DNA of 64,000 nt from Candidatus Omnitrophota bacterium. GTDB lineage: Bacteria; Omnitrophota; Gorgyraeia; Gygaellales; UBA12090. Both the position numbers and the translations under genes were made by a program. Shown here one piece after another: positions 1,322-60,024 of this stretch (positions are counted from its first letter, which is position 1; every line of letters starts with the position of its first letter). The stretch spans positions 87,819-151,818 of the forward strand of contig JAUSCZ010000023.1 of NCBI GenBank assembly GCA_030674475.1. Reading direction: 5' to 3'. The notes beneath the pieces were generated by a model. The model did no database searches, was not told the DNA's origin, and worked only from the letters and a program-made list of their open reading frames with translations.

Positions 1322-1476
1322 GCGATAACCAACCCCCCGTTGAAAGCCTTTTCCATTTCCCCTGCGAAGTTATACTTTTGCCATTGCCCGGCTTAACTGG
1401 GCAATCTAGTGAAAGCGTTTTCTCAAAACCCCGGTTTTGCCCTTATTTTTGCCTTTTTATGTGATATACTTTAGGT

Positions 1477-4400
1477 ATGCTCCTCAAGCTTAAAAAGCTA
1501 ATATCCCTTTTTATCTCTTTTTGCCTCATTCTTGAGCAGACTACTTTTGCTCAAAGTATAAACCTGTCGCATTACTTTGCCAATCCCGGAAAACCTATTA
1601 TTCAAAGCGATAAGTTTAGGCCCTTACACCTAAGGTATCTGGGCTATGATAACCTGAGCCAGGACTTTAAGCTACTCTTAGACAGGGGAGATACCAAGAA
1701 GAAAGACCTGGAGAACAAGGCCTACATAGAGGAAAACACCCAAACCCTGCTCAAATACTTCTTCATCGGATTAGCCTTACCCAATGAGAAGTTCTGGGTC
1801 AACCTAAGGCCGGATGCCCCGGATAACATCATAGATGATGACTTGGCCCAGACAGATGTAGGCAAGATACTTCTTGAAGCAGACCTCCAACTTAAGAAAG
1901 ACACCGCCGGCTGGACCTCGCCCCAGACCCCGGAAGGCAAAGAATATTGGGATAAACTCTACCAGAAGGCTGGAGAGCTATTCGGAACCGAGAACATCAC
2001 TATTCCCACCCTCACCCGTCCCTGGATAGTCCCGGATGAAATAATAATCAGGGAAGCCCCGGATAATGCCTATATCTATAAGGCCACCTTGAAAGTGATG
2101 TTAGAGCAGGATTATCTCCAGGGGAATCCGCGCCTCGGGAGCGCGCAAGCAGTTTATAACTTTTCAGACCCCCGCTTGAAAGAGCTCAACGAATATTCCA
2201 CCCAGCTAATCAAAGAAAAAATAATTCCTAAGTTGACCTGTGAGGTGAATACTTCCAAGAGATACGCTCCCCTTAGACAAGTCTATTACTCTTTAATCTT
2301 AGCCCAGAATTTTAAAAAGAAGTTTAGCCAATCAACCGGAGAAAACCCCTATGTCAAGCTGATTGACTCTCGTAACCTCTCTAACCTCACCTCAAAAGGA
2401 CCCTGGGATAAGCGGACCTACTTTAGGGAATACCAGAAATCATTCCAGCAAGGCGAATACAACCTCAAAGCCACCGCATCCACAGTCTACGGTCAGACTA
2501 TCAGAAGCTATATGAGCGGGGGTGTAATAGTGGATATTACCTCTTCCAGTGTTAATATAACTAAGGTAGAGGCGAATAGAGAGTTGAAGCTAATAAGTAG
2601 TAGCGCGCTACTGGGGCCGATTAAGGTTCCTGCGCCCCCTGGATTTGAGCATAATGAAGCAGGCATTCTGGTCCCAGTCCCTAAGAAAAATAATAACGAT
2701 AACATATCCAATCAAGAACCTAAAGGGCATGAGCCTACAGAAGATAAAACAAAGCCGGAAATCATACTTCCTAACAGGGTAGATATTGATGCTGTCAGTG
2801 GTAAAGACCCGACACAAGAGCAATTCCATGATAAGTTTCTCCTGGAAAGTATGTCTGTTAAGGATATTCCTTTATTCTTCAAGGACTATTTAAAATCCTT
2901 GCGCCGCTACCATCTAAGACAAAAAGACAGGGATTCAGCTTATTCTTTGGAGTTGTCCGGGAAAGGAATCAGCCTGCCTGTTGGGTATGAACTCCTTTAT
3001 AAAATATTCGTTTCTGGCCAAGAAGAGGACATCCGGGAAGAAATGAAGCATCTTAGCCTTGAGGAAAGAAAGCAATTTGATCAGGCAGTGAAAGATTTAG
3101 AGAATCTGTTTATCTTGAAAGGAGTATTCGAGAAGTTTAATACAAATAATAAAGAAAAGATACAGCTTCAGCTTCTAAAAATGGCATATGCCTTTTTTAA
3201 GAAGTTAAAACAGGCAGGATTTAATTATTCTGAAGAGTTTGCTGAAAGTATATTGGAGGGATTAGAAGGAAATATTAAATTATGGGGGGCAATATACGAT
3301 GAACTGCAGATTCATTTACGCGTTGAGACTGAAAAGGCCGGACTCTCCCACCCGGAGGAATTATCGCGTTATTATTATCGGGAAAAATTCAAGCCTTATC
3401 TTGATGTTTCTAACCAGCTCCTCTCTTTGAACGTTTATTGGGATGCCTCCCGTAAAGCAAGGCTGTTAGATAACCTTGAGGAGTTGGTGGTTGTGGAGGC
3501 AATAGAGGAATTTTCCTGGGTTAAGGATATATTCAGTCAGGAGCAAAACCCCGAATTAAAGCTAAGATTTAAATTGATTGAGCCTTTCTTTGGTAAGGTA
3601 TCTTATGAGCCTCTTGAGCATTTAGGCCCGCAAGAAGCTTTTGGTCTGGAACTGGAAAAGGATGTCACGGATGAAGTCCGCTCAGGTAAACTTTTCAACA
3701 CTTCTAAGGGTTGGGAGGCTTTAAGAAAATACTTAAAAGAATACCAGCTGGACTACAATAATACTATGCATATCCATATAGATAGAGGCCGGGGGGATAT
3801 TAATCAGAGAAACCAAGAGGTCTTATATCTTGTAACTAGTTTTCTGGAAGGATACCTATTGTCGCTTAGTACTTCTCGCGCTATAGATTACCTGATGTTA
3901 GAAGCAGATGCCCAATATGCTTTAAGGTATGATTACCTCTCATATTTATATCAAACTATGAAACACGACAGAATGATCCAGTTTAATAATATGGGCAACA
4001 CCACCATAGAATTTCGTTTTGCCATGCCGCCGTTGAGGCATTTAGCCTTAAGTGAAAAAGCCAGGATAATTTATATCAAGGACCTGATTACTCTCTTTGC
4101 CGCGTTAAAAGAGATAATAATGCATCCTGAAGATAGGCTATCCTTAAAATATCTTGGTCTTCCGGTGCAAGCGGCTCAATATAAACAAAAGATTAATTTT
4201 AACCATTTAAATAGGATATTAGAAGTAGTATTCAGGGGGCATCCCCAAGCTAAGGAATCGTTCCGGAGATTGATGCTATTCAGCCAGCGCAAGAGTATTT
4301 GTTCTTATCGCAATAGCAGCAATAAGCAAATAGAGGAAAATGAGGCAAAGGCTTCTTTGCGGAAAGAGATAAGTAATTTTTACTATCTGCAAGGGTTAGG

Positions 4401-5478
4401 TCTGCTCTATGTTATTCATAGTGAATCAAAAGAAGGCATATCCTTGAATGTAGATGAAGACATAAAGGAAAAGATAGGGCAAGCAAAAACTCGTAAAAGA
4501 GAATATCCTCTTTACCATGAGGTCGCCATGTATTTACTTCGGACAGTAGCCGATGATTATGAAAATGAAGAAACAGTAAGAGTTATCTTGGGGGAAAAAA
4601 TGCAAGCTGATGAATATATAGTGGCCTTAGACAATGCTAGTACTTTTGTTGTTCCCGCTTTAGATAAAATTGGGAATAAGAGAGACTATTTTCTAACATA
4701 TGGTCTTCCGGCTTTAGTTCAAAGAGTCCATTATAACTATGAGATGTTTGGGCTCGCCTTAAAAGCCGCTACCGCCTTTAAAGATAGGGAAGAACGAAGC
4801 TATTTTCTGAACTACAGCATCCTGTTCCTGTGGCGGATGAGCGAAGGAGATGTAGCTAAGTTTAAGAAATTACTTGAGCTTGTTCAGCAGGGAGCCGTTG
4901 CCTTTGAGCCTGGGGTAGAACGAAACAATTTCCTGGAACAGGGAGTCAATAGGCTGGCCTACGGAATCAATTATAACTATGAGATATTTGCGGAGAGGTT
5001 GCTGAACATAAAGAATAAAGAATCTTCTTCAGCGCTCACTACAGAATTAAACAGAGGCGGCATTGATCTTACCGCACTGCCTATCACTACCCAACCACCC
5101 CTAAATCAGCCTTTGACGGCTAATATCTCTATAGCCAGCTTGGCTTTAAATCTCAATATTAACTTGGATAATGAGTTCAGGCAGATTCAGGATATGCTCA
5201 AGGCCGGGATTATGCCTTCAAGCGAAAGGATAAGGGAGTATGCTTTAACATCTTCATCTTTGCAAAAAGAGGAAGGCTATGCTCAGGAGATAGGTAGAAT
5301 ACTTGGCTGTATTGCGGAGATATTGAGGTTAGAAGAGGACAGGGGAGTGTCTACTGCTTTAGCCTTAAAGGAGATGCTCATTTTGTTTGAGTCGGATAAG
5401 CCCGCGCGGGATGTGCAGTTTGCCTTAAGCAAAATTACCGTTATGCCCAGGGAGCCGGCGAAGTATAGTTCGCAATAG
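1477..5478 (+). CDS. giant protein (1333 aa), paralog 1 of a three-member novel family. Hydrophobic N-terminal leader ending FAQS, conserved ~330-aa N module, long helical variable middle, conserved ~180-aa C module (GGIDLTALPITTQ ... LKAGIMPS ... LGCIAEILRLEE)
   Basis: Long uninterrupted ORF. N and C modules align residue-by-residue with the ORFs at 5517 and 52639 (and 8280 for the C module). ATG sits directly 3' of TATACT, so possibly leaderless or nearly so. Confidence 0.7.
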   Translation: MLLKLKKLISLFISFCLILEQTTFAQSINLSHYFANPGKPIIQSDKFRPLHLRYLGYDNLSQDFKLLLDRGDTKKKDLENKAYIEENTQTLLKYFFIGLALPNEKFWVNLRPDAPDNIIDDDLAQTDVGKILLEADLQLKKDTAGWTSPQTPEGKEYWDKLYQKAGELFGTENITIPTLTRPWIVPDEIIIREAPDNAYIYKATLKVMLEQDYLQGNPRLGSAQAVYNFSDPRLKELNEYSTQLIKEKIIPKLTCEVNTSKRYAPLRQVYYSLILAQNFKKKFSQSTGENPYVKLIDSRNLSNLTSKGPWDKRTYFREYQKSFQQGEYNLKATASTVYGQTIRSYMSGGVIVDITSSSVNITKVEANRELKLISSSALLGPIKVPAPPGFEHNEAGILVPVPKKNNNDNISNQEPKGHEPTEDKTKPEIILPNRVDIDAVSGKDPTQEQFHDKFLLESMSVKDIPLFFKDYLKSLRRYHLRQKDRDSAYSLELSGKGISLPVGYELLYKIFVSGQEEDIREEMKHLSLEERKQFDQAVKDLENLFILKGVFEKFNTNNKEKIQLQLLKMAYAFFKKLKQAGFNYSEEFAESILEGLEGNIKLWGAIYDELQIHLRVETEKAGLSHPEELSRYYYREKFKPYLDVSNQLLSLNVYWDASRKARLLDNLEELVVVEAIEEFSWVKDIFSQEQNPELKLRFKLIEPFFGKVSYEPLEHLGPQEAFGLELEKDVTDEVRSGKLFNTSKGWEALRKYLKEYQLDYNNTMHIHIDRGRGDINQRNQEVLYLVTSFLEGYLLSLSTSRAIDYLMLEADAQYALRYDYLSYLYQTMKHDRMIQFNNMGNTTIEFRFAMPPLRHLALSEKARIIYIKDLITLFAALKEIIMHPEDRLSLKYLGLPVQAAQYKQKINFNHLNRILEVVFRGHPQAKESFRRLMLFSQRKSICSYRNSSNKQIEENEAKASLRKEISNFYYLQGLGLLYVIHSESKEGISLNVDEDIKEKIGQAKTRKREYPLYHEVAMYLLRTVADDYENEETVRVILGEKMQADEYIVALDNASTFVVPALDKIGNKRDYFLTYGLPALVQRVHYNYEMFGLALKAATAFKDREERSYFLNYSILFLWRMSEGDVAKFKKLLELVQQGAVAFEPGVERNNFLEQGVNRLAYGINYNYEIFAERLLNIKNKESSSALTTELNRGGIDLTALPITTQPPLNQPLTANISIASLALNLNINLDNEFRQIQDMLKAGIMPSSERIREYALTSSSLQKEEGYAQEIGRILGCIAEILRLEEDRGVSTALALKEMLILFESDKPARDVQFALSKITVMPREPAKYSSQ

Positions 5479-42527: not shown

Positions 42528-44252
42528 ATGAACGTGGATATTACCATAAAAATAGCCGGGGAGGCCGGCCAGGGCTTGCAGACTATTGGCCGGCTTCTGG
42601 CTAAGGCGTTTTCCCGGGGAGGCTGGCATGTATTTGCCAATCAGGTTTTGCAATCAAGAATCCGGGGCGGGCACAATTGGTTTCAAGTCCGAGTCTCGGA
42701 TATTAAAATTTTGGCCCCCGCGGAGGTTACTGATATTCTGATTGCCCTGGATAATGAAAGTGTTTATCATACCCGAGAGCTTAGTGAAAATTCGATTACC
42801 ATCTTTGATTCTTCCCTGATTAAATATAATTCCGAAAAGGGATTAATTTTGGATATTCCCTTTGAAAAGACCGCCAAAGAAAGCGGGGGAAATAAGCTGA
42901 TAAGTAATACCGTGGCCCTGGGAGCGGTGTTAGGCCTTCTGGAATACGATATAAATATTTTATTTGGCCTGCTTAAGGAAAGCTTTCAAGAAAAGGATCA
43001 AGGGATTGTTCAGGCTAATATTCAGGCGGCCCAGGCCGGATACAATCTCGCCTACCAAAAGATTAAAGCAAATAAGCTTCCCCGTTTAAACAGGACAAAC
43101 GGCCATCCGAGGATGCTGATTAATGGAAGCGAGACCATAGCTTTAGGGGCCTTGGCCGCCGGATGTAAATTTATCTCAGCTTATCCGATGAGCCCTTCCA
43201 CCGGCATAATGACCTATCTTGCTTCCCAGGCGGAGGAGTTTAAGGTATTAGTGGAGCAGTCCGAGGATGAGATTGCTTCCATAAATCTGGCCTTAGGGGC
43301 TTCTTATGCCGGGGTCCGGGCCATGACCGCTACCAGCGGCGGAGGTTTCGCCCTGATGGTTGAGGGCCTCAGCTTAGCCGGGATGACTGAAACCCCAATA
43401 GTTATTGTGGATGCCCAAAGGCCGGGCCCGGCCACCGGTCTGCCTACCCGGACCGCCCAGGAGGATTTGGAGTATGTAATTTATGCCGGTCACGGTGAAT
43501 CTCCCCGGGCGGTATTGGCTCCTCTAAGCATAGAAGATGCCTTTTATCTGACGGTAAAGGCCTTTAACCTGGCGGATAAATACCAGATACCGGTAATAAT
43601 TTTGAGCGACCAATTATTAGCTGATTCCTATTTAACCGTGGATAGTTTTGATGTTGAAAGCCTAAAGATTGAAAGGCATATCTTAAGCGATGAGGAGTTA
43701 AAGAATATAAAAAACTACAAAAGATACCAAATTACCGATTCGGGAATTTCTCCCCGGGCCTTGCCGGGAAATCCTTACGGCCTGGTGGTGGCGGATAGTG
43801 ATGAACACGATGAAGAGGGCCATATTACCGAGGATGTGGATTATATACGCCCGGAGATGGTCAAGAAAAGAAATCGTAAGACAGCCGGTTTATTGAAAGA
43901 GATGTCCGCGCCGATACAATACGGCCCCCCGGAGGCCAAAAACATAATCATCGGTTGGGGTTCAAGTTACGGCGCGCTTAAAGAAGCGGTGGATATCCTG
44001 AATTCGGAAAAAGAAAAGGTGAGCTTAGCGCATTTTAACCAGGTCTGGCCTTTAAATAAAGAATATTTTGACTTTCTGAATACGGCGGAATTCGTCTGCG
44101 TTGCGGAAAATAATTTCCGCGGGCAATTCGCCCATTTGATTGCCGGGGAAACCGGAAAGGTAATCAAAAACAGGATAAATAAATTTAACGGCTTGCCTTT
44201 TTCGGCGGCAGAGATAGTCCGGGAATATAAGAGGCTAAAAAATAGTTTATAG
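42528..44252 (+). CDS. korA: 2-oxoacid:ferredoxin oxidoreductase, fused gamma-alpha subunit (ORF opens with TTG at 42492; ATG at 42528 preferred)
   Basis: N-terminal gamma-like domain (IKIAGEAGQGLQT), alpha domain (SETIALGALAAGCKFISAYPMSPST), C-terminal domain III; 574 aa from 42528. Confidence 0.8.
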   Translation: MNVDITIKIAGEAGQGLQTIGRLLAKAFSRGGWHVFANQVLQSRIRGGHNWFQVRVSDIKILAPAEVTDILIALDNESVYHTRELSENSITIFDSSLIKYNSEKGLILDIPFEKTAKESGGNKLISNTVALGAVLGLLEYDINILFGLLKESFQEKDQGIVQANIQAAQAGYNLAYQKIKANKLPRLNRTNGHPRMLINGSETIALGALAAGCKFISAYPMSPSTGIMTYLASQAEEFKVLVEQSEDEIASINLALGASYAGVRAMTATSGGGFALMVEGLSLAGMTETPIVIVDAQRPGPATGLPTRTAQEDLEYVIYAGHGESPRAVLAPLSIEDAFYLTVKAFNLADKYQIPVIILSDQLLADSYLTVDSFDVESLKIERHILSDEELKNIKNYKRYQITDSGISPRALPGNPYGLVVADSDEHDEEGHITEDVDYIRPEMVKKRNRKTAGLLKEMSAPIQYGPPEAKNIIIGWGSSYGALKEAVDILNSEKEKVSLAHFNQVWPLNKEYFDFLNTAEFVCVAENNFRGQFAHLIAGETGKVIKNRINKFNGLPFSAAEIVREYKRLKNSL

Positions 44253-44329
44253 TTTATAGTTGATAGTTTATAGTTAATAGCAAATATAGCTAAAACCCTA
44301 AACCCTAAACCCTAAACCCTAAACTAAAT
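44244..44329 (+). mobile_element. heptamer-array element copy A: (AGTTKAT)x5 - AGCAAATATAGCT - (AAACCCT)x4, filling the korA-korB gap
   Basis: Tandem 7-mers read directly. The korA stop codon lies inside the first array and the korB ATG abuts the last repeat; related copies at 52528-52638 and 59918-60024. Confidence 0.6.
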
Positions 44330-49035: not shown

Positions 49036-50199
49036 ATGGAACGGATATATTTAGATTACGCGGCTACTACGCCTTGCGACGCGCGGGTAGTGGAGGCAAT
49101 GCAGCCGTATTTTAGCGAGAAGTTCGGCAATCCCTCAAGCATACATTCTTTTGGTCAGGAGGCCAAGAAGGGTTTGGAGGATAGCCGTCAGGTTTTAGCG
49201 GATTTTTTGGGGGCAAAGCCTGAAGAGATTGTTTTTACCTCTGGTGGCACTGAGTCTAATAATTTTGCAATTTTTGGCATTGCCGCGGCGCAAGAGAAAA
49301 AAGGTAATCATATTATTACCAGCGTGATTGAACATCACGCGGTGAGCGAGCCGTGCAAAGTTTTAGAGAAGAAAGGCTATGCTACAACTTATGTGAAAGT
49401 GGATAAAGAGGGCATAATTGATCCGGCCGAGGTTAAAAAAGCGATTACCGATAAAACGGTCTTGATCTCCATAATGCAGGCTAATAATGAAATTGGGACC
49501 ATTCAGCCCATAGCGGAAATCGGTAAAATTGCCAAAGAAAAAGGGATTACCTTTCATACCGACGCGGTGCAAAGCGTAGGCCATATCCCGGTCAATGTCA
49601 ATGAGTTGAGTGTGGATTTATTAAGCCTTTCGGCGCATAAGTTTTACGGGCCCAAAGGGGTCGGGGCGTTGTATATCCGTAAGGGCATCCGGATAAACCG
49701 TCTTTTGCATGGTGGAGACCAGGAAAAAGGCCGCCGGGCCTCAACCTCTAATGTCAGCGGTATTGTGGGCATGGCCAAGGCCATTGAATTATGTAAAGAA
49801 AAGTTAAATGAGGAAGTCAAATTTCAGTCTGATTTACGCGATACCCTGATTAAAGGTTTAACGGCTAAGATTGAGAGAATTTATCTTAATGGCCATTCTA
49901 AATTGAGACTGCCTAACAATGTAAATATATCTTTTGAGTATATTGAAGGCGAGTCAATGCTTTTGAATCTGGATATGTTAGGGATTGCCGCTTCCACCGG
50001 CTCAGCCTGCACCTCCAGTTTTTTAGAGCCTTCCCATGTCCTGCTGGCTATTGGCCGTCCGCATGATCTAGCCCATGGCTCATTAAGGTTTTCTTTAGGC
50101 CGCTGGACTAAAAAAAGCGATATTGATTACCTTATTGAGGTTCTTCCGGGAATAGTGGATAAATTGCGCCAGATGTCGCCTCTATATGAAAAAAAATAA
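49036..50199 (+). CDS. nifS: cysteine desulfurase (NifS/IscS class)
   Basis: PLP-Lys motif SAHKFYGPKG, active-site loop SGSACTS, 387 aa. Confidence 0.85.
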   Translation: MERIYLDYAATTPCDARVVEAMQPYFSEKFGNPSSIHSFGQEAKKGLEDSRQVLADFLGAKPEEIVFTSGGTESNNFAIFGIAAAQEKKGNHIITSVIEHHAVSEPCKVLEKKGYATTYVKVDKEGIIDPAEVKKAITDKTVLISIMQANNEIGTIQPIAEIGKIAKEKGITFHTDAVQSVGHIPVNVNELSVDLLSLSAHKFYGPKGVGALYIRKGIRINRLLHGGDQEKGRRASTSNVSGIVGMAKAIELCKEKLNEEVKFQSDLRDTLIKGLTAKIERIYLNGHSKLRLPNNVNISFEYIEGESMLLNLDMLGIAASTGSACTSSFLEPSHVLLAIGRPHDLAHGSLRFSLGRWTKKSDIDYLIEVLPGIVDKLRQMSPLYEKK

Positions 50200-51217
50200 G
50201 AAAGCGTTAAGAACTAAAAAATACAGGCTGATGCCAGGAGATGGTAGTTTTATAGCGCGTATCACGGATAGCGTGCTTAAAGGGAGAGAGGTGAATCTCA
50301 GGCAGGCTAAGAGGCTGAACGCGATAAAAGGCGACGATATTTACAGTCTTTTTAATTCGGCCTACAAAATCCGCAAGAAATTTCGGGGGAAAAAGGTGGA
50401 GCTTTGCGCCATCACCAATGCCCGAAGCGGGGCCTGCGCGGAGAACTGCGCTTTTTGCGCCCAGTCCAGTTGGAATAAAACCGCGGTTAAGGTTTATCCC
50501 TTACTTAGCGAGAATGAGCTCTTTAAAAGGGCTAAGCAGGCCCAAAAAACCGGGGCGGGTTATTTTTGTATTGTTACCAGCGGCCGGCGCATCCAGAAGA
50601 AAAGCGATTTTTTGAAAATCTGTAAGGCTATTTCCAAAATCCGCTCTAAGCTAAAACTTAATGTTGATGCCTCATTAGGAGAACTAAGCCTTGATGAAGC
50701 CCGGGCGCTTAAAGACGCTGGCTTATTTCGCTATAACCATAACTTGGAGACTGCCGCAAGCCTGTATCCGGAAGTCTGCACTACCCACACCTATTCTGAC
50801 CGGATAAGGACAATTGAAAATGTCAAACAGGCGGGTTTAGAACTTTGCTGCGGCGGGATATTCGGGATGGGGGAGAGCTGGGCCCAGAGACTGGATCTGG
50901 CTTTTGCCTTGAAAAAGTTTAACCCGGAGTGCATCCCGGTAAACTTCCTGAATCCTGTTGCCGGAACTAGACTTGGCCGGAAAAAACCCTTATCTCCCCT
51001 GGAATTCCTCAAGATTACCGCTATCCTGCGTTTTATCTTTCCCCGCCAGGAAATAAAAATCTGCGGTGGCAGAGAGACCAACCTAAGGAGCCTTCAGCCG
51101 TTAATGTTTTTGGCCGGAGCAGACTCAATGATTATCGGCGACTACCTCACCACCAAAGGCAATCCTCCCCAGGACGACCTTAAAATGATTCAGGATTTAG
51201 GTTTATCCACGAATTGA
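50186..51217 (+). CDS. bioB: biotin synthase-like radical SAM enzyme
   Basis: CxxxCxxC (CAENCAFC) radical-SAM triad, YNHNLETA motif as in BioB; genomic context with bioF/bioC/bioH/bioDA. Confidence 0.65.
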   Translation: MKKNKKALRTKKYRLMPGDGSFIARITDSVLKGREVNLRQAKRLNAIKGDDIYSLFNSAYKIRKKFRGKKVELCAITNARSGACAENCAFCAQSSWNKTAVKVYPLLSENELFKRAKQAQKTGAGYFCIVTSGRRIQKKSDFLKICKAISKIRSKLKLNVDASLGELSLDEARALKDAGLFRYNHNLETAASLYPEVCTTHTYSDRIRTIENVKQAGLELCCGGIFGMGESWAQRLDLAFALKKFNPECIPVNFLNPVAGTRLGRKKPLSPLEFLKITAILRFIFPRQEIKICGGRETNLRSLQPLMFLAGADSMIIGDYLTTKGNPPQDDLKMIQDLGLSTN

Positions 51218-51232
51218 CCCGGACGTGCTACA

Positions 51233-51275
51233 GTAGCGGCGCGATTTATCGCGCTTGGAAGGAGATTTTCGGGTG
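51233..51275 (+). promoter_or_regulatory. conserved leader element (palindrome GGCGCGAT-TT-ATCGCGCT + AAGGAG + N8 + GTG) upstream of bioF; second copy at 62324-62366
   Basis: 43-nt sequence about 88% identical to 62324-62366; the differences inside the palindrome are compensatory. Confidence 0.55.
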
Positions 51276-52436
51276 ATAAATTTTAAAGAAGAATTGGCCG
51301 CGCTGGAAGCCAGAGGCTTAAGGCGCAAAATGCGCTTTGTTTCTTCGTCTTGCGATAGATACATCACGATTGAGGGTAAAAAGGTTTTAAACTTTTGCTC
51401 CAATAATTATCTGGGCCTGGCTAATGATAAACGGCTGAAAGCGGCGGCAATCTCGGCAATCAATAAATTTGGAGTGGGAACTGGGGCCTCAAGATTAGTT
51501 TCCGGCAGTAATATCCTGCATAAGCAATTAGAAGAAAAATTGGCTGATTTTAAAAGGCAGGAAGCCTGTTTAGTTTATCCCAGCGGCTATAGCGCCAATT
51601 TAGGGATAATTTCCGCCTTGGCAGATAGAAACAGTATTGTTTTTTGCGACCGCTTGAATCACGCTTCAATTATTGACGGGATTATCTTAAGCCGGGCCGA
51701 GCTGGTGAGGTATCCGCATCGGGATGTAGAAGCGTTAGAAAAATTGTTAGGTTACCATGTCACAAAGTCACAAAGTCACCAGAAACGATTGATAGTAACC
51801 GATAGCGTATTTAGTATGGATGGGGATATTGCTCCTTTGCCGGAGCTTTTGCGCTTAGCCAAAAAATACGATTGCCTGCTGATGATTGATGAAGCCCACG
51901 CCACCGGCGTTTTGGGTAAGAGCGGCAGAGGGACCTTGGAACATTTTGGCCTCAAGGCCAATAAGCGGATAATCCAGATGGGGACTTTGAGCAAGGCTTT
52001 GGGTGGCCTGGGCGGATTTCTCTGCGCAAGCCGGGAGCTGATTGACTATTTGGTTAACCGTTCGCGTTCCTTTATCTTTAGCACTGCCTTGCCCGCGGCT
52101 CTATGCGCCAGCGCTTTAGAGGCAATCAGGATAATTGAGAGAGGCGGCAATCAGCACGCAAGGCTTTTAAGTAATGCCAATTTTTTAAGAGACGGCCTAA
52201 ACTCCTTAGGTTTTAATACCTTAGAGTCTCAAACCCCGATTATTCCCATCCTCACCAAAGAACCGCGCCTAACCATGGAGTTCAGCCAAAAGCTATTTGA
52301 AAAAGGCATCTTGGTTCAAGGCATCCGCCCCCCGGCTGTCCCCGATAACCTCTGCCGTCTCCGGGTCACGGTGACGGCCAGCCACACCAAAGGCGATTTA
52401 GAGTTTGCCTTAAGTATGTTTAAAAAGATAAGATAA
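51273..52436 (+). CDS. bioF: 8-amino-7-oxononanoate synthase (ORF track starts at TTG 51255; GTG 51273 has AAGGAG 8 nt upstream)
   Basis: Class II aminotransferase fold of alpha-oxoamine synthases; PLP-Lys in TLSKALGGLGG; context with other bio genes. Confidence 0.65.
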   Translation: MINFKEELAALEARGLRRKMRFVSSSCDRYITIEGKKVLNFCSNNYLGLANDKRLKAAAISAINKFGVGTGASRLVSGSNILHKQLEEKLADFKRQEACLVYPSGYSANLGIISALADRNSIVFCDRLNHASIIDGIILSRAELVRYPHRDVEALEKLLGYHVTKSQSHQKRLIVTDSVFSMDGDIAPLPELLRLAKKYDCLLMIDEAHATGVLGKSGRGTLEHFGLKANKRIIQMGTLSKALGGLGGFLCASRELIDYLVNRSRSFIFSTALPAALCASALEAIRIIERGGNQHARLLSNANFLRDGLNSLGFNTLESQTPIIPILTKEPRLTMEFSQKLFEKGILVQGIRPPAVPDNLCRLRVTVTASHTKGDLEFALSMFKKIR

Positions 52437-52527
52437 TAGTAGCTCCTGCCCAAGAAAGCGCTTGCCCAAAACCCCTGTTTTGCCCTTGTTTTTACCCCTT
52501 TTATGTGGTTTACTTTAGGTAGCCGAA

Positions 52528-52638
52528 TTAGTTTATAGCTGATAGTTGATAGTTTAGAGCAAAAGATTAGCGAACTAAATAGAATTTATGTTTGTTTTTT
52601 TGCTATCAACTATCCGCTATCAACTATCAACCAAATAT
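52528..52638 (+). mobile_element. heptamer-array element copy B with terminal inverted heptamer arrays, inserted exactly between the ancestral leader (…CTTTAGGT) and the start codon of giant paralog 3
   Basis: Left array agtttat-agctgat-agttgat-agtttag, right array (reverse complement) gctatca-actatcc-gctatca-actatca. The flanking 52464-52524 aligns with 1424-1476 upstream of paralog 1, where the ATG follows immediately. Confidence 0.65.
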
Positions 52639-55600
52639 ATGCCTTTACGCCTAACCAAATTCCTATCTCTGTTTCTCTCTTTCTGCCTTATCCTTGAGCA
52701 GAGCGTCTTTGCTCAAAGCATAGACCTTTCCCATTACTTTGCCAACTCTGGCAAACCTATTATCCAGAGCGATAAATTTCGGCCCTTACACCTAAGGTAT
52801 CTAGGCTATGATAACTTGAGTCAGGACTTTAAGCTACTTTTAGATAAGGGAGATACTAAGAAGGAGGACTTAGAGAACAAAGCCTACATAGAAGAAAACA
52901 CCCAAACCCTGCTCAAATACTTCTTCATCGGATTAAGCCTGCCTAATGATAAGTTTTGGGTTAACCTAAGGCCGGATGCCTCGGAGAATATCATAGATGA
53001 CGACTTAGCCAAGACAGATATCGGCAGGATTATGCTGGAAGCTGATGTCCAGCTAAAGAAGGATACTGCAAGCTATACCTCACCCCAGGCCAAAGAAGGC
53101 CGGGAATACTGGGATAAGCTGTATAAGAAAGCAGAAGAGCTATTCGGAACCGAAAACATCACCATCCCCACCCTAACTAGGCCATGGATTGTCCCGGACG
53201 AGATTATTTTAAGAGAATCTCCGGATAACAGCGCCTACATTTACAAAGCTACCCTCAAGGTGATGTTGGAAGAGGACTACCTAAAAACCAGCAACCAGCC
53301 CGTCCTGGCAAAGCGAAGCGGGCCAGGGAAACCAGTAACCAGTAACCAGGTATATTCTTTTAGTGACCCCAGGCTAAAAGAGCTTAATCAATATTCTACC
53401 CAGCTAATCAAGGAAACCATAATCCCCAAGCTCACCCAGGAGATCAACTCATCCAGGAGATACGCTCCCCTAAGACAAGTCTATTACTCTCTCATCTTAG
53501 CCCAGCACTTTAAACGGAAGTTTGCCAAGCAGCCCTCGGGGCAGGCAGGAGAAAATCCCTATGTTAAGCTGATTGACTCCTGTAACCTTACCAACCTAAC
53601 CTCCAAAGAACCCTGGGATAAACTTACCTGCTTCCAAGGCTATCAGAAATCCTTTCAGCAGGGAGAATACAATATTCAAGAGCCGGTGTATACGCCTACG
53701 GGGCAGGCAATAAGAAGCTATTTTAGTGGGGGGCAGCTTCTAACAAATATTCTCAGAGTAACAACGGTAACCCCGGGGTTTGGACCACCTTCTATTTCAG
53801 GCAGCATCCATTTGAAAAAAATTGACTATTCTGTTTCGCCGGTTGCCAAAGGGGACGTAAGCCTTTTGACTGGGTTAAGGTCAAGCTCAGCGATTGAGGA
53901 AAGAAATAATGCGTCTTTATTATCTATGGGAAACTCGACCTTGAAAGGAAGGCCAACGAGAATAATGCTTTCTTTCTTTTCTAACGTTCGTGATAAATCT
54001 AAGCTTGACAATCCATTGGGAGTCGCAGTCTTAGGTGGTACTTTGAAACAGCAACTTAAGGATACTGTCCATATTGTTATGGCACATCATCTGATTGATG
54101 GCGGAGTAGAAGGAATCATCGAAAAAATAAAGATTGAGCATCCGGAAATATTAGGATTATCTCTCGGCTTTGGTTCTTTGCAACAACTGATTACTGTTAT
54201 GCAATATATTCGTTCATTGCCAGCCGCGGAAAGACCCATTGTTGCTTTAGGTAATGTTGTAGCGACTTATAACACAGAATTTTTTCTGAAGCAATACCCG
54301 GAGGTTTTTATTTGTGCAGGGCAAGGTGAAATGGCAATAGTCGATCTCGTCAAATATCGCAGAGGCGAAATAAAGAAAAATGAAATACATGATGTTGTGT
54401 ATATGAATGATGGTCAGATTATTGCAAATCCAAGGAGTCAGTCATTTCTCGTAGATATGGGAACGCCTATGACAGACTTTTTGCCCGATGTAGTAAAATC
54501 CGGGGGTGTTGTTTATATGGAGACCTCGCGCGGCTGTCCTTTTAATTGTACGATATGCGCGCGCAGACCTTTTTTGGGCATAGGTTGGAAAGGCAGGAAT
54601 TTAGATAATATTATTGGCGATATGGAGAAGGCGGCTAACTTGGGCGTCAAATTTATTAACTTTGTTGATGAAGATCTATTTGCTGGCGGTATGAAAAGGG
54701 TGATTCGTTTTGCTCAAATGATTCATGAGGCAAGAAAAGCAGGACGGATTCCTGATGATCTTATTTTTGGTACATCGGTAAGCGTAAGGAATATTTACAG
54801 AATAAATGATTCATTAGAAAATAATCTAAAAAGAAAGCAAGCCTTGGAATTATTGAAAGAGGCCGGCCTTACAGTTCTTTTCATAGGGATTGAATCTGGT
54901 TCGCCAAAGCAACTCGAGCGCTATGGTAAGGCTGCAACCATCAAAGAGAACGAGGAAGCCATTAGGATTATTGAGGATTGTGGAATATGGACTATCCCGG
55001 GTTTTATTATGCTGGATCCGCTTGTGACAATAGAGGAGATCAGGGAGAATATTGATTTTTTAAGACGAACAGGGATGGATGCCCGGATTACGTATCCTTT
55101 AAAGACATATATCCCAATGATAGGAAGCTCTTACACTCAAAAATTAATTGAAGAAGGTTTAGTTTATTCAGTCTCCTATATTCCTGATCGGTTAGCATAC
55201 GAATATTCATTTAGAGAAAAAAGAGTCGCAGATATCTTAAAAAGAATAAAAGATTGGGAAGAAAGCCAAGCAATGTTTTTCTGGGATCTAAAAATTATTT
55301 TTCGTTCCTCGCGTTTTGGTGAATTAAGCCGGGATAAACAAGAATTGGTTAGGACATTAGTTGATAAACAAACCAAGATTTTATTAGATTATTTGGATGA
55401 AATGGTTAATCTAAGCTTGAGCGAAATAGAACAAAAAGAAGTTTTTCAGAGAATATCTTTTAAGTTTGGCGTCCGCTTGATTAACGATATGTTGGAGGCC
55501 TTGCAGTACGTGGAAAATGGTTATTTGCCGCTTGGAGACAAAGAATTCAGAAGTATTATACAGAAAAGTATTATTCGGGAGATTTTGCGGTTATACTTTA

Positions 55601-56247
55601 CACAAAAACAATTTTCGATGGAGGAAGTAAGGCGTATTATCTCTGAGGAATTCCACTATAAATTTAAAGAAGATATTTTAAAGGAAATTTTTGCTTTGTT
55701 TATTAAGGAAGAACGCATCAAACAAATAGACGATAAGACGTTCTGCTTACACGAAAAGTTTTTTGTCTACAGGAATATTCCGTGGCCAGATTTGCCTAGG
55801 CCAGCTAAAGTTATAGTTGGCATTGATGATTTGGCAAGCTCGCCGTTGATTCCTCAGAAAGTTAAATTCCCGGGTGGCATCGACTTACGTTTTCTCCCTA
55901 TAGTTACCCAGGCCATAAGCAACCTAAGTTTGAACGCTTCCCGTATTCCTTTAAGCAAGTTGGATAGCATTAACCTTAATCAGGAATGGCGCCAGATACA
56001 AAAGATGGTTGAAGCCGGCATTACGCCATCAGCGGAGAGGATTAAGGAGTATATCCAGCTATCTTATCTTAATAAAGGTGAACCTAATGATATGCAGAAA
56101 GTCATTTCTTGCATTGCGGATATATTAAGATCTGAAGAAGAGCGCTGCGTTTCTACTGAGCCAACGCTAAAAGATATTCTGGTTGTGCTTGAGTCAGGAC
56201 GGTCGGCTCAGGAACTAAAAGCTGTTTTTACCGGTAGTCAGTCCTAA
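52639..56247 (+). CDS. giant paralog 3 (1203 aa from ATG 52639; ORF track begins at 52588 inside the inserted element). Family N module + B12-binding-like domain + radical-SAM core + family C module
   Basis: N-terminal 330 aa align with paralogs 1 and 2. Middle has a Rossmann-like B12-binding region, then radical SAM CxxxCxxC (CPFNCTIC) and FINFVDEDLF. C-terminus has the family C module (GGIDLRFLPIVTQ ... VEAGITPSAERIKEY ... ISCIADILRSEEER). Confidence 0.7.
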   Translation: MPLRLTKFLSLFLSFCLILEQSVFAQSIDLSHYFANSGKPIIQSDKFRPLHLRYLGYDNLSQDFKLLLDKGDTKKEDLENKAYIEENTQTLLKYFFIGLSLPNDKFWVNLRPDASENIIDDDLAKTDIGRIMLEADVQLKKDTASYTSPQAKEGREYWDKLYKKAEELFGTENITIPTLTRPWIVPDEIILRESPDNSAYIYKATLKVMLEEDYLKTSNQPVLAKRSGPGKPVTSNQVYSFSDPRLKELNQYSTQLIKETIIPKLTQEINSSRRYAPLRQVYYSLILAQHFKRKFAKQPSGQAGENPYVKLIDSCNLTNLTSKEPWDKLTCFQGYQKSFQQGEYNIQEPVYTPTGQAIRSYFSGGQLLTNILRVTTVTPGFGPPSISGSIHLKKIDYSVSPVAKGDVSLLTGLRSSSAIEERNNASLLSMGNSTLKGRPTRIMLSFFSNVRDKSKLDNPLGVAVLGGTLKQQLKDTVHIVMAHHLIDGGVEGIIEKIKIEHPEILGLSLGFGSLQQLITVMQYIRSLPAAERPIVALGNVVATYNTEFFLKQYPEVFICAGQGEMAIVDLVKYRRGEIKKNEIHDVVYMNDGQIIANPRSQSFLVDMGTPMTDFLPDVVKSGGVVYMETSRGCPFNCTICARRPFLGIGWKGRNLDNIIGDMEKAANLGVKFINFVDEDLFAGGMKRVIRFAQMIHEARKAGRIPDDLIFGTSVSVRNIYRINDSLENNLKRKQALELLKEAGLTVLFIGIESGSPKQLERYGKAATIKENEEAIRIIEDCGIWTIPGFIMLDPLVTIEEIRENIDFLRRTGMDARITYPLKTYIPMIGSSYTQKLIEEGLVYSVSYIPDRLAYEYSFREKRVADILKRIKDWEESQAMFFWDLKIIFRSSRFGELSRDKQELVRTLVDKQTKILLDYLDEMVNLSLSEIEQKEVFQRISFKFGVRLINDMLEALQYVENGYLPLGDKEFRSIIQKSIIREILRLYFTQKQFSMEEVRRIISEEFHYKFKEDILKEIFALFIKEERIKQIDDKTFCLHEKFFVYRNIPWPDLPRPAKVIVGIDDLASSPLIPQKVKFPGGIDLRFLPIVTQAISNLSLNASRIPLSKLDSINLNQEWRQIQKMVEAGITPSAERIKEYIQLSYLNKGEPNDMQKVISCIADILRSEEERCVSTEPTLKDILVVLESGRSAQELKAVFTGSQS

Positions 56248-56329
56248 CCAAAAAGTGGCATTTCCCGCCTAGTTTATTTTTTTTCCGCCTTCTCTTCCAT
56301 TATTCAATTTATCATTAGTAACTGTTAAG

Positions 56330-56400
56330 CCAAACCTACCCCGCTAACCTTAAAAGATGTGCTTATCCGGCTGGAAAATGACCCATCCTTATTTGACTAA
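56330..56400 (+). pseudogene. orphan 3'-end remnant of another giant-family paralog
   Basis: cctaccccgctaaccttaaaagatgtgcttatccggctggaaaatgac parallels 8994-9045 of paralog 2 (…TPQILKDVLILLESDNP); an in-frame stop interrupts it. Confidence 0.5.
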
Positions 56401-56537
56401 AGAGGGCTGGAAGAAGCTGGGGGGAGATAAAAGAGGGGGAGGAGATTGCCTGCCTATCCTGCCATCGGCTTCCCGTCTCGCCTTTGGCTCGCCGAGGCGG
56501 ACGCCGCGAGGCGAGCAGTCAAGCGGTATTAGGAGAT

Positions 56538-56801
56538 TTATCTTCTACGGTAGGCGTCTTCGCGGGTGTCAACGCCGTCAATAATTATATTAAGGCCTTC
56601 AATATAGAAACAAATACGATACTTTCCGACTCTGAATCTATGTGTAGCTGGCGGAAGATTAACCAGGGGTTTGGCAAAATGCAGGGGATTGCGGGAGGAA
56701 ATATATAGGCCGATTTTCTCGATAATTCTGTTTTGCAGTTGGTGGGAGAGCCTCTTGAAGTCTCGTTCTCCGGCAGGGGTAAATTCAAGACTTTCAATCA
56801 T
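56538..56801 (-). CDS. RelE/ParE-family type II toxin
   Basis: 87 aa; LEFTPAGERDFKRL ... HRFRVGKYRICFYI ... VDTREDAY matches the RelE/ParE fold signature. Confidence 0.75.
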   Translation of the reverse strand: MIESLEFTPAGERDFKRLSHQLQNRIIEKIGLYISSRNPLHFAKPLVNLPPATHRFRVGKYRICFYIEGLNIIIDGVDTREDAYRRR

Positions 56802-56809
56802 CTTGCTGG

Positions 56810-57262
56810 TCAGGATAATCCTAGCTCATGCTTGATCTTCTCAAAAGGAACCAGCCCTAACTTTTGGGCTTCAACAATGCCCTTTTTTAGTTTTAGCGCT
56901 AATTTAGGGTTGACCGGCAGGTGGGTTTCGATGGCGTCAATAAGCCAGCCGACAGGATTGTGGTGGACATATTCTTTGGCTGGAACGTTTTCTTCAAATT
57001 TCGTATCAAAGGCACAAAGCATATCCCAAAGCGAATATGTGTCAAATATAAAATACTTAGGAGAGCCGCCCTTATCTGTTATTACTCCGGCTTTGAAATT
57101 TTTAGGAGAAGATAATCCGGCATTTTTAAGCTCTTTGGCAGAAACAGCTGAAAATTTTGTCAGCTTCTCTAGCTTCACTAATTTTTTCCCCAAAGATATA
57201 CTGGACAATGATTTTGCTTTCATTTCTTTGCTCCTCAATAAAGAGGATAACATATCCAGCAA
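56810..57262 (-). CDS. Phd/YefM-like antitoxin (start codon uncertain; internal Met codons possible)
   Basis: Directly upstream of and co-oriented with the RelE gene (8-nt gap); the central region resembles the Phd/YefM fold. Confidence 0.5.
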   Translation of the reverse strand: MLDMLSSLLRSKEMKAKSLSSISLGKKLVKLEKLTKFSAVSAKELKNAGLSSPKNFKAGVITDKGGSPKYFIFDTYSLWDMLCAFDTKFEENVPAKEYVHHNPVGWLIDAIETHLPVNPKLALKLKKGIVEAQKLGLVPFEKIKHELGLS

Positions 57263-57329
57263 TTCAAGTCAAGGCAATTTCCAGGATTTGTCTTGATACT
57301 GAGTGATTACTTTAAGATTATATAGTATC

Positions 57330-57360
57330 TTGACAAGTCATATATAATATGTTATATAAT
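57330..57360 (+). promoter_or_regulatory. sigma70-like promoter (TTGACA-N17-TATATA/TATAAT) positioned so that transcription would start at or within about 3 nt of the ATG of the HTH-Fic gene (leaderless mRNA candidate)
   Basis: ttgaca at 57330-57335; tatataat at 57353-57360; ATG at 57365; no SD. Confidence 0.4.
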
Positions 57361-57364
57361 AATT

Positions 57365-58291
57365 ATGCTGAATAGCAATAATTATATTGGCAAAATCAGG
57401 GAAATGCTGGAAAAAACCGGCTGGGGGCAAGCTCAATTTGCCCAGGAGCTGGGCGTAACTTTTGCCACAGTTAACCGCTGGCTCAACGGCCACCACAGGC
57501 CGCATTTGAGCCAGATACGCCAGATTGAGAGGTTACATAAAAACATTATCGGAATCATCCCGGTAACCAAGCAAGAAATGGAGCAGATTATTTTACAGTT
57601 GAAGGCCAAGATAAAGCAGTATCCGGATATTAAGAAAATCTTGCGGGATGATACAACATCCGAGGAGTTTCTGTTGGAGTTGACCTATAATTCCGACGCC
57701 ATTGAGGGGAATACATTAACTAAGAAAGAGACGGAAACAGTTATCTTCAATAACGCCTCTATCAAGGATAAAAGCTTAATTGAACATCTGGAGGCGGTAA
57801 ATCATGCGGTGATCCTGAAGGATATTTTTTCGGGGAAGATTGGCTGCCCGGTTGATGAAGAGCTGATAAAAAAGACGCATAAGATATTGATGCAGGGCAT
57901 CCGGGATGACGCCGGCGAATACGCCAGCCATCAGAGGGCAATCCGGGGGGTGGATTTGATCCTGCCGTCCCCCGATGATATTGCCGGGGAAATGAAGTTA
58001 TTTTTAAGCAAAGTTAATGACTTCCCGCCTCGACCGATTGAGCATATTGCCAGGATGCACGCGGATTTTGAGGCGATTCATCCTTTCGGCGACGGCAATG
58101 GCCGCGTAGGACGGCTGATTATGATTGTTCAGTTAATTCATTGTGGTTTTGCTCCCTGTATCATTAGCGTTAATGAAAAAGCCCGGTATTATGAATCCCT
58201 AGAATATGTCCAAAAAAAGTCTGAAACGCATCTTGTGTGTTTCCTGGCTGAAGCGGTATTGAAGGGCTATGAGTTAATTAGTTCTCACTGA
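57365..58291 (+). CDS. Fic-family protein with N-terminal Xre-type HTH
   Basis: HTH (GQAQFAQELGVTFATVNRWLNG) and Fic motif HPFGDGNGRVGR. Confidence 0.8.
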   Translation: MLNSNNYIGKIREMLEKTGWGQAQFAQELGVTFATVNRWLNGHHRPHLSQIRQIERLHKNIIGIIPVTKQEMEQIILQLKAKIKQYPDIKKILRDDTTSEEFLLELTYNSDAIEGNTLTKKETETVIFNNASIKDKSLIEHLEAVNHAVILKDIFSGKIGCPVDEELIKKTHKILMQGIRDDAGEYASHQRAIRGVDLILPSPDDIAGEMKLFLSKVNDFPPRPIEHIARMHADFEAIHPFGDGNGRVGRLIMIVQLIHCGFAPCIISVNEKARYYESLEYVQKKSETHLVCFLAEAVLKGYELISSH

Positions 58292-58450
58292 AAAACTCTC
58301 GTTTTTCAGTGAGAACTAATTCCAAAGGGGCTCACGCCCCTATGGCGTTCGTTCCGACTCCGTCGGAACTCACTGTTACCCCTTAAGGGGGTTGCCTGCA
58401 ACCCCCTTAAAATCCCCCAGTAGTTACCACTTTTTCAGTGGTAACTAATT
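58279..58450 (+). other. cluster of five consecutive perfect stem-loops bounded by direct repeats TTTTTCAGTGRKAACTAATT (58302-58321 and 58431-58450); candidate structured RNA or REP/MITE-like insertion
   Basis: Five stems read directly: a 17-bp stem covering the Fic stop; aggggc-tcac-gcccct; gttccgac-tcc-gtcggaac; ttaagggggttg-cctg-caacccccttaa; agttaccact-ttttc-agtggtaact. Confidence 0.5.
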
Positions 58451-58469
58451 GGCAAGAGATATAAATGAT

Positions 58470-59171: not shown

Positions 59172-59929
59172 TTTCCACTCAAAAAATAAGAGATAATTTT
59201 TCCCGCAGCGCGATACATTATGAGAAATACGCGGATATTCAGGCCAAGCTGGCCCAAGAACTACTGGAAGAGGTAATCGGAGCAGGATATACAGCGAATG
59301 AGGTCTTGGACATTGGATGCGGAACCGGATGGCTATTGGGTGAGCTAAAGAGATTTCTGCCCCAAAGCCGGCTCTGGGGTTTGGATATCAGCCTGGCAAT
59401 GGCGCGTAAGACAAAAGCAAAGATTGAAGAGGTGTTGACCGCGGATGCCGCCTTTTTGCCGTTTAAGGATAAGGCCTTGGACCTGGTTTTATCCAATGCC
59501 GTTTATCAATGGGTGCCGGATTTGGAGGCGGCCTTTAAAGAGGCGCGTAGGATTCTTAAATCCGGCGGCTGTTTTATGTTTAATTGCTTTGGGGCCAAGA
59601 CCTTGCGGGAACTGCGCCAGTGTTTTGGGATAGAGGAAACCTTTCTTCCTCGGGCGGATTTTATAAGAGAGGCGTTGGAGAGGGCAGGGTTTTCCTGCCC
59701 GGAGTTTAAGGTCAGGGAGTGCAACCGGCATTTTGATAATTTAGCCGATATCTTAAGCTGGCTGAAATATATCGGGGTAAACCGGATTAATCAGCATCAG
59801 GGGTTTTTAACCCCGTCCCGGCTGGCTAAGGCCGACCATTTCTATCGCAGTAACTTTCGCGGTAACGGCCAGGTCTATGCCACCTTTGAGGTCATCAGCG
59901 TAAAAGCAATAAAAGCAGTTGATAGTTGA
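59168..59929 (+). CDS. bioC: malonyl-ACP O-methyltransferase
   Basis: SAM-binding motif LDIGCGTGW, about 250 aa, N-terminal YEKYADIQ typical of BioC; the stop codon lies inside element copy C. Confidence 0.6.
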   Translation: MISTQKIRDNFSRSAIHYEKYADIQAKLAQELLEEVIGAGYTANEVLDIGCGTGWLLGELKRFLPQSRLWGLDISLAMARKTKAKIEEVLTADAAFLPFKDKALDLVLSNAVYQWVPDLEAAFKEARRILKSGGCFMFNCFGAKTLRELRQCFGIEETFLPRADFIREALERAGFSCPEFKVRECNRHFDNLADILSWLKYIGVNRINQHQGFLTPSRLAKADHFYRSNFRGNGQVYATFEVISVKAIKAVDS

Positions 59930-60024
59930 TAGTGTATGCCTGCCTGCCGGCAGGGTTTATAGCAAATAAATTAAAACTGTTTATCAATGAGCTATAAACT
60001 ATCAACCATAAACCATAAACTAAA
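59918..60024 (+). mobile_element. heptamer-array element copy C (GTTGATAGTTGATAGT - palindrome CCTGCCGGCAGG - …AAACTAT CAACCAT AAACCAT AAACTAA) between bioC and bioDA
   Basis: Read directly; provides the bioC stop codon and abuts the bioDA ATG with no SD. Confidence 0.6.

Follow-up and report, generated by a model that had tools for sequence, protein, structure and literature searches.

A 64,000-nt stretch from a Candidatus Omnitrophota bacterium (GenBank assembly GCA_030674475.1, contig JAUSCZ010000023.1, positions 87,819 to 151,818, forward strand; hereafter the window) carries three paralogs of a giant protein family, and the start of the third raises a question. Directly before its start codon lies a palindromic element built of repeated heptamers, here called element B, at the point where in paralog 1 the same upstream sequence runs straight into ATG. 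What is this element, how did it come to lie there, and what would it do to the expression of the gene? On the evidence given below, we lean towards the view that element B is transcribed as a leader, a hairpin of heptamer repeats placed where a normally leaderless promoter meets its gene, and that this junction is old and prone to recombination. We thus read the element as a slippage-prone repeat leader and not as a fresh insertion of a miniature inverted-repeat transposable element (MITE). The comparison is built on the following features.

1411..1476, + strand: promoter module of paralog 1, with TG at 1462-1463, TATACT at 1465-1470 and TTAGGT at 1471-1476

1477..5478, + strand: coding sequence of paralog 1 (1333 aa), without a Pfam domain

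52437..52520, + strand: promoter module of paralog 3, homologous to 1411-1476 and to module versions in other Omnitrophota contigs; its parts are a GAAAGC/GCTTGC half-palindrome (52454-52465), CAAAAC-CCCT-GTTTTG (52467-52482), GTTTTGCCCTTGTTTTT, the extended -10 dinucleotide TG (52506-52507), the hexamer TTTACT (52509-52514) and the discriminator TTAGGT (52515-52520)

52521..52638, + strand: element B, a palindromic heptamer-array element of 118 nt between promoter module and ATG

52588..52638, + strand: spurious N-terminal extension of 17 codons (MFVFFAINYPLSTINQIY), read from element B

52639..56247, + strand: coding sequence of paralog 3 (1202 aa), with a signal peptide, the shared N- and C-terminal modules, and B12-binding and radical-SAM cargo

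The upstream regions of paralogs 1 and 3 are homologous. Local alignment of 1411-1476 with 52454-52520 gave 56 identical columns of 67 and a score of 82, against 14.1 +/- 2.4 with a maximum of 27 in 2000 shuffles; MAFFT alone put the gap elsewhere, and the manual and local alignments were unambiguous. A preliminary description of this locus had recognized the near-copy at 1424-1476 and 52464-52519, which is correct except that its true extent is longer, and no other match to the block was found anywhere in the window. Paralog 1 has its ATG (1477) directly after ...CTTTAGGT, and in paralog 3 ...CTTTAGGT ends at 52520 and is followed by AGC, both as described before. The sequence that follows, with its inverted heptamer arrays and hairpin, measures 118 nt (52521-52638) and not the 115 bp previously given. 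Homologues of paralog 3 start with M-x4-5-K-[LF]-[IL]-S-L at the position of 52639, and judged from this alignment of N-termini the true start is 52639 (MPLRL...), where the preliminary description had put it. The longer open reading frame (ORF) from an in-frame ATG at 52588 translates element B itself, as had also been suspected, and it is the one used by the public NCBI protein (P0121, 1219 aa, 100% identical). We consider this gene model to be 17 codons too long at its 5' end, which corrects the product to 1202 aa.

Element B consists of an 8-nt left flank (AGCCGAAT), a left array of four TAGTTKA units (TAGTTTA TAGCTGA TAGTTGA TAGTTTA, 52529-52556), a palindromic core of 46 nt (52557-52602), a right array of four CTATCMR units (CTATCAA CTATCCG CTATCAA CTATCAA, 52603-52630) and an A-rich tail, CCAAATAT (52631-52638). 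Its arms of 37 nt are 81% complementary, and folding gives a ~100-nt hairpin (-40.6 kcal/mol, z = -7.1). TA occurs on both sides (52520-52521 and 52638-52639), a match of only 2 bp in AT-rich DNA, and the element would measure 116 nt if this were counted as a duplication. The core has no second copy in the window. Rfam 15 gave no match at the gathering score over the whole window and, at E <= 1 on 52380-52720, just sub-threshold matches to plant miRNA precursor hairpins; a tRNA scan found none. Since an independent Logan assembly (L001, run SRR13727527) reproduces 46882-52869 at 100% identity, element B is not an assembly artefact.

To define the upstream block more widely, a search pattern was built from its shared part (GAAAGCG-N12-18-GTTTTGCCCTTRTTTT). 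Eleven metagenome contigs matched, and two further ones (L122 and L123) were added through the loci of close homologues, so that the module is present in L122, L123, L125-L135, the sister genome contig L145 described below, and the window. Its 11 distinct versions align over ~68 nt with a consensus of the palindrome GAAAGCGCTTTC, CAAAAC-N4-GTTTTG, GTTTTGCCCTTRTTTTT and an extended -10 box, TGn[TC][AT]TA[CT]T, in which TTTACT takes the place of TATACT in paralog 3, L123, L145 and L127. The box is followed by exactly 6 nt and then by the family ATG in 7 of the 11 versions (paralog 1, L122, L125, L127, L128, L134 and L135), and this direct junction is the commonest state across the family. In three contigs (L129-L131) the module precedes an unrelated gene, with a 5' untranslated region (UTR) of ~45 nt that carries an AAGGAG Shine-Dalgarno (SD) sequence, which shows that the module acts upstream of the transcription start and is no UTR itself. 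The block, earlier named the ancestral leader, is therefore a promoter and not a transcribed leader. By these comparisons, a promoter module is defined that is conserved in Omnitrophota before the genes of a large, modular family of secreted proteins.

Promoters of leaderless mRNAs in Actinobacteria and Deinococcus have their -10 box 6-7 nt upstream of the start codon. The seven versions with the direct junction, paralog 1 included, resemble them, having TGnTATACT 6 nt before ATG and no usable SD. A start at the usual distance of 7 nt from the hexamer would, in paralog 1, coincide with the A of the ATG (1477), and an in-frame TGA stands upstream at 1462-1464. Because the -10 box sits 6 nt before the ATG, a leaderless mRNA is predicted; members of the family are probably made from such mRNAs as a rule, with a leaderless arrangement as the ancestral one. 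Paralog 3 differs from these promoters in having lost the 6-nt arrangement. The -10 box might also be read two bases to the right, as TACTTT; this was rejected, as the transcription start would then fall inside the ATG. A literature search found no report of leaderless usage in Omnitrophota.

The history of the junction can be followed in a groundwater sister genome contig (L145, ERZ909593), which was reached through close orthologues of the beta subunit of 2-oxoacid:ferredoxin oxidoreductase (OFOR). It is collinear with window positions 41920-52522 at 90.6% DNA identity, and the alignment ends at the left edge of element B. After bioF, the sister genome also carries the promoter module, with 85% identity to the copy before paralog 3, and then a spacer of 28 nt before the start codon, TTTAGATAG-AAGTTACAGCTTCCATAAAATCC-ATG, which comprises a small hairpin and an A-rich tail; an analogous spacer of 30 nt is found in L123. 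The left junction, TTTAGRTAG, is common to L145 and the window. Because the sister genome shares this junction and already has a spacer, the insertion would be old and not the product of a single step, and by the same comparison the junction is an old insertion site shared by the two genomes. A short spacer would have been enlarged to the 118-nt element, or replaced by it.

The gene beyond the spacer also differs. Paralogs 1 and 3 have in common an N-terminal module of ~365 aa that starts with a signal peptide (76% identity) and a C-terminal module of ~120 aa (46%), while their middles are unlike, with B12-binding and radical-SAM domains in paralog 3 and no Pfam match in paralog 1. In the gene of the sister genome (10555-13220), the N-terminal module is the one part held in common with paralog 3 (70% aa identity); the cargo found at this syntenic position differs from radical SAM and looks GNAT-like. 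The promoter of paralog 3 is most like that of L123 (88%), followed by L145 (85%) and paralog 1 (73%), and the first 300 coding nt of paralog 3 are closest to paralog 1 (84%), with 73% identity to L145. Identities are thus mosaic across the junction, which from these values is a recombination breakpoint between family members, and paralog 1 is not the direct "before" state of paralog 3. The clean before-and-after view claimed in the preliminary description is lost on these grounds, with a 28-nt spacer already present in the sister genome, synteny ending at 52522 and a different gene downstream. Two further proteins were considered as sources of an empty-site orthologue and found unusable: P0122 (75% identity via the radical-SAM cargo) lies at a contig end with a different N-terminus and context, and P0124 is more distant.

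Two other elements of the same build are present in the window, both between genes of one enzyme or pathway.

44243..44329, + strand: element A, which takes up the space from the OFOR alpha/gamma gene to the start of the OFOR beta gene (ATG 44330); (TAGTTKA)5.4, core CAAATATAGCTAAAA, (CCCTAAA)4, CTAAAT

59917..60024, + strand: element C, between bioC and a bioD-bioA fusion (ATG 60025); left array AGTTGAT x2.4, a nested small palindrome at 59936-59958, right array CTATAAA CTATCAA CCATAAA CCATAAA CTAAA

All three elements carry AGCAAAWA at the array/core junction and end in AAC[TC]AAA(T) before ATG. Their cores are unlike, so that they have a common architecture and no common core sequence, and the arms of element A are no longer complementary. 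From array end to ATG there are 8 nt in element B (ATG 52639), 6 nt in A (44330) and 5 nt in C (60025), with no SD core between. Stop codons of the upstream genes fall within the left arrays of the two other elements, TAG 44250-44252 in unit 2 of element A and the bioC stop TGA 59927-59929 in element C. Read as (TTGATAG)n, the left array offers TGA or TAG in every one of the three frames, and the right array, (CTATCAA)n, holds neither a stop nor an ATG, GTG or TTG. Since stops occur only in the left array and none in the right, such elements would be tolerated, and would perhaps be useful, exactly between a stop and a start. From their position between genes of one enzyme or pathway, elements A and C have to be part of the transcript and to permit translation of the gene that follows. 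The small palindrome nested in element C, CCTGCCTRCCGGCAGGCAGG, was observed in two more settings, namely the nuoL/nuoM gap (15944-15972) and L145 10620-10645, where it adds 21 nt in frame to the part of the sister genome's paralog that encodes the signal peptide. This palindrome is similar to the very small dispersed repeats known from cyanobacteria.

The junction that holds element A was compared among orthologues to see how such arrays change. The alpha and beta genes overlap at this junction in L141-L143 (82% aa identity), whose place is taken in L138-L140 and L145 (92%) by a mini element of 35 nt, TAGTTTA TAG caaatatagctaaaa CCATAAA CTATAAA CTAAAT ATG, and the spacer measures 56 nt in L144 (81%) and 77 nt in the window. 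Relative to L145, element A is longer by two indels of 28 nt and 14 nt, both exact multiples of 7. The only other intergenic indel of at least 6 nt in the 10.6-kb alignment with L145 is one of 32 nt at 42078, which is not a heptamer array. Additionally, an array in the coding sequence of NAD synthase (48909-48936) has four units against five in L145, with compensating small indels. As the indels are exact heptamer multiples, the arrays, so far as these two genomes tell, grow and shrink in place. Unit sequences at homologous positions drift as well, among CCCTAAA, CCATAAA and CTATCAA. Besides the NAD synthase array, we observed a coding array in paralog 3 (53291-53349), (AACCAGC)2...(AACCAGT)3, located in a 12-aa insertion relative to paralog 1; the loop that holds this insertion carries heptamer arrays in other family members (L122 4978-5004, L123 854-872, L145 11251-11269).

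These observations bear on the possibility that element B is a recent transposition of a non-autonomous MITE, Correia-like or IS630-like, onto the TA of GGTATG, with the TA duplicated and the promoter pushed 116 bp away. The flanks GGTA|...|TATG against GGTATG in paralog 1 would fit such an event, as would the 81% complementary arms of a whole element that folds as a long hairpin, the presence in 64 kb of three like-built elements that all have AGCAAAWA at the array/core junction, and the many copies with conserved cores in other phyla (e.g. Planctomycetaceae L006, L010, L023, L028, L052, L053 and L062). However, the junction TTTAGRTAG and a spacer are already present in the sister genome, which points to an old event of more than one step, the three cores in the window are unlike and that of element B is unique there, element A has changed in situ by exact heptamer multiples, and a Pfam scan of ~39 window ORFs showed no transposase. 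In AT-rich DNA a TA match of 2 bp counts for little, and as proof of transposition the target-site duplication was rejected as too weak. We regard a recent MITE insertion as decidedly unlikely. Of the displacement first proposed, the position of the element between promoter and start is retained; the length changes of element A point to repeat dynamics in situ and not to a recent transposition.

Correia/NEMIS and other MITEs are palindromes of ~100-150 bp in transcribed intergenic DNA and give long RNA hairpins in 5' UTRs or between cistrons. The window elements are like them in size, palindromy, location in transcribed spacers and a possible TA duplication. They differ in having no terminal inverted repeats distinct from the simple repeats, no near-identical copies in the window, no link to a transposase in the window, and a length that changes by unit slippage. 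REP/REPIN elements were rejected as a match, since simple heptamer arrays make up the arms and a REP unit of 20-40 nt with a GTAG motif is missing.

By the sequence and placement of its arrays, element B belongs instead to the long simple-sequence repeats that include the short tandemly repeated repetitive (STRR) sequences of Cyanobacteria and the TAACTGA repeats of Beggiatoaceae. STRR heptamer repeats, with small dispersed repeats nested in them, were reportedly described by Mazel in 1990 and Elhai in 2008. The window elements share with them intergenic heptamer tandem arrays, often near start codons, and nested palindromic inserts of ~20-25 nt (element C), while phylum and unit sequences differ. 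Heptamer repeats of Nostoc overlap start codons, with eight units over the start codon of recO (bioRxiv 10.1101/2022.06.06.494920). TAACTGA direct repeats occur in marine Beggiatoaceae and in some Cyanobacteria and Bacteroidetes, directly upstream of start codons where an SD is rare; they are patchily distributed, a role in translation has been proposed for them, and just one inverted set was reported (MacGregor 2015, PMC4679880). The window elements likewise consist of tandem heptamers in two to six or more units (4+4 in B, 5.4+4 in A and 2.4+4 in C, each array thus having at least two), are mostly intergenic, lie a few nt upstream of start codons in place of a recognisable SD, occur before essential genes and are patchy across phyla. 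As with TAACTGA repeats and STRRs, unit number varies between close relatives (element A against L145). The units differ, however, as TAGTTKA/CTATCAA, CCATAAA and CCCTAAA are not mentioned in PMC4679880. The window elements also have inverted array pairs around a core that form a hairpin, and their stop-rich array is distal, whereas TAACTGA has stops in the gene-facing orientation. Omnitrophota are not among the reported TAACTGA hosts; a literature search found no report of these repeats in the phylum, and a search with the heptamer sequences gave chance matches only. Thus the inverted heptamer-array hairpins would be a variant of a repeat kind already known before start codons.

How widely this inverted form occurs was examined with the exact pattern GATAGTTGATAG-N30-60-CTATCAACTATC in species-representative genomes, which gave at least 120 stretches (L002-L121); the counts that follow refer to the matches listed. 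Inverted TTGATAG/CTATCAA arrays occur in at least ~13 phyla, with hosts in Chloroflexota, Acidobacteriota, Planctomycetota, Gemmatimonadota, Armatimonadota, Bacteroidota, Cyanobacteriota, Verrucomicrobiota, Omnitrophota, Binatota and Thermodesulfobacteriota, as well as single contigs labelled Gammaproteobacteria and Clostridia. Some genomes give many loci with cores conserved within the genome, for example Planctomycetaceae and Acidobacteriota MFD03602. The start of a long ORF lies within 20 nt of an array end in 62 of 121 elements (51%), often overlapping it as CAACTATG. Counted per side, start adjacency is 28% against 10.5% for random non-ORF positions of the same loci (2.7-fold, p = 2e-14), and the distance peaks sharply at 0-5 nt, with an ATG within -6 to +5 nt on 32 of 242 sides. 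At 37 of the 68 start-adjacent sides the upstream ORF stops inside the opposite array, and at 23 more it stops within 60 nt. A scan of viral contigs gave 0 matches and was unusable as a control.

The cross-phylum loci contain 65 other period-7 arrays with many different units, against at most 3 for each of the periods 5, 6, 8 and 9, and period-7 arrays, 26 in number, are likewise dominant in 142 kb of Omnitrophota loci. That TTGATAG recurs may therefore be due to the great number of heptamer arrays in existence and not to the spread of one sequence, and because so many other units occur in the same loci, we make no claim that TTGATAG is special or horizontally transferred. This could also mean that the elements are neutral, slippage-prone junk: arrays would grow by replication slippage and persist only in harmless spacers between stop and start, with no role in expression, and the same heptamer would turn up across phyla simply from many arrays with many units. 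The dominance of period 7 in many units would be expected of such a process, and so would the unit numbers that differ between sister genomes, the lost complementarity of the arms of element A, and G-U pairs in the hairpins that show no strand asymmetry. The sharp peak of the array-end-to-ATG distance, the 2.7-fold adjacency to starts, the ending AAC[TC]AAA(T) before ATG in all three window copies and the persistence of elements at essential intra-operon junctions across orthologues of 81-92% identity argue against it, and we think the neutral account unlikely.

Taken together, the comparisons are consistent with the following course of events. The ancestral gene would have made a leaderless mRNA, and a short hairpin spacer would have been gained before the window and sister genomes split; later this spacer would have been enlarged or replaced, at a point where family members have also recombined. 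An mRNA started at the family promoter, or one extended from bioF by read-through, would now have a 5' UTR of ~118 nt that opens with a long hairpin and closes with a G-poor, A-rich stretch without SD (the right array plus CCAAAUAU), where the ribosome would start at 52639. The element would thereby create a 5' UTR rather than merely move a promoter, and it may, as the preliminary description expected, change the expression of the radical-SAM paralog.

Several points weigh against this transcribed-leader reading. A consensus promoter scanner called no + strand promoter near either leader, and none in 52300-52800, and no -35 box was recognised in the module. The scanner needs a -35 box, which explains its silence; as a result, the -10 assignment rests on the alignment, and the promoter check proposed in the preliminary description came out negative by program and positive only for an extended -10 box seen by alignment. 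The -10 hexamer of paralog 3, TTTACT, lacks the A at position 2, and the promoter there may be weak or decayed. The transcription start, the leaderless state and the co-transcription of the element are all inferred from sequence. About two thirds of the window ORFs have no SD core, so its absence before the elements says little. Simple slippage cannot explain element B, because its size difference from the sister spacer, 90 nt, is not a multiple of 7 and the cores differ. Finally, G-U pairs in the hairpins of 56 oriented elements numbered 99 sense and 120 antisense, which is not significant, and for want of a strand bias nothing indicates selection on the RNA fold.

Element B might otherwise supply a promoter of its own, for example at TAGAAT in the core (52580-52585) or as TTGATA-N17-GATAGT in a TTGATAG array. 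Only the right arm would then be transcribed, as an unstructured, U-rich and G-poor leader of ~45 nt, and the old promoter would be redundant. A start ~7 nt past TAGAAT would give the leader UUUGUUUUUUUGCUAUCAA...AUAUAUG, (TTGATAG)n does read TTGATA, 17 nt, GATAGT, and the upstream -10 hexamer has indeed lost its A at position 2. However, TAGAAT has no -35-like hexamer 16-18 nt upstream, the scanner made no + strand call in 52300-52800 for this promoter either, the left array of B has just four imperfect units, and elements A and C sit in operons between subunit genes, where no internal promoter is needed. An element-borne promoter is accordingly a proposal we think quite unlikely.

The arrays might also act at the level of DNA, as binding sites for a regulator, and the transcription of paralog 3 would then be newly controlled. 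Arrays of direct heptamer repeats that bind proteins are known, such as the heptad TTTTGAT repeats to which ToxR binds at the ctxAB promoter and the heptamer repeats for SARP regulators. Element B also lies directly 3' of the -10 box, where a bound protein would block RNA polymerase. Against this, two of the three window copies are inside operons and far from promoters, the cross-phylum arrays abut start codons and not promoters, and the units drift freely at homologous positions (CCCTAAA, CCATAAA, CTATCAA). Regulation through such an array seems very improbable to us.

There is also a bolder version of the transcribed-leader reading, to which we give a small probability. The elements would form a cassette that spreads horizontally among phyla and serves as punctuation within operons. 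Translation would end in the distal array whatever its frame, the RNA would be delimited by the hairpin, and ribosomes would be recruited to the proximal G-free array without an SD, via a conserved factor such as ribosomal protein S1; the 7-nt period would be imposed by a dedicated mechanism. In Omnitrophota, a formerly leaderless gene would have received its leader from such a cassette. The loci assembled here make the role of start-codon heptamer repeats directly testable in two natural series. The first is graded within one promoter and gene family, from no spacer (predicted leaderless) through a mini-hairpin of 28-30 nt to a double array of 118 nt, and the second consists of intra-operon copies whose unit number differs between sister genomes.

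Some further observations concern the genes around these loci. The paralog family looks modular, with a constant N- and C-terminus and a swappable middle. Structure prediction for the N-terminal module that the paralogs share reached a mean pLDDT of 52, which is insufficient for a fold search. Paralog 2 (5517-9068) lies directly 3' of paralog 1, lacks its own promoter module and is broken up into three ORFs (5517-6419, 6622-8064 and 8280-9068); it is either a pseudogene or the result of sequencing frameshifts. Paralog 3 itself interrupts a biotin cluster (50186-62049) together with a 187-aa unknown ORF and an HTH-Fic gene, the order being bioB, bioF, the three interrupting genes, an alpha/beta hydrolase gene, bioC and the bioD-bioA fusion. 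All credible genes of the window are on the + strand, and the few minus-strand ORFs overlap + strand ORFs. Elsewhere in the window, a nuo operon occupies 9335-18919, and 19411-31150 holds a type I restriction-modification system along with Fic and KAP NTPase genes.

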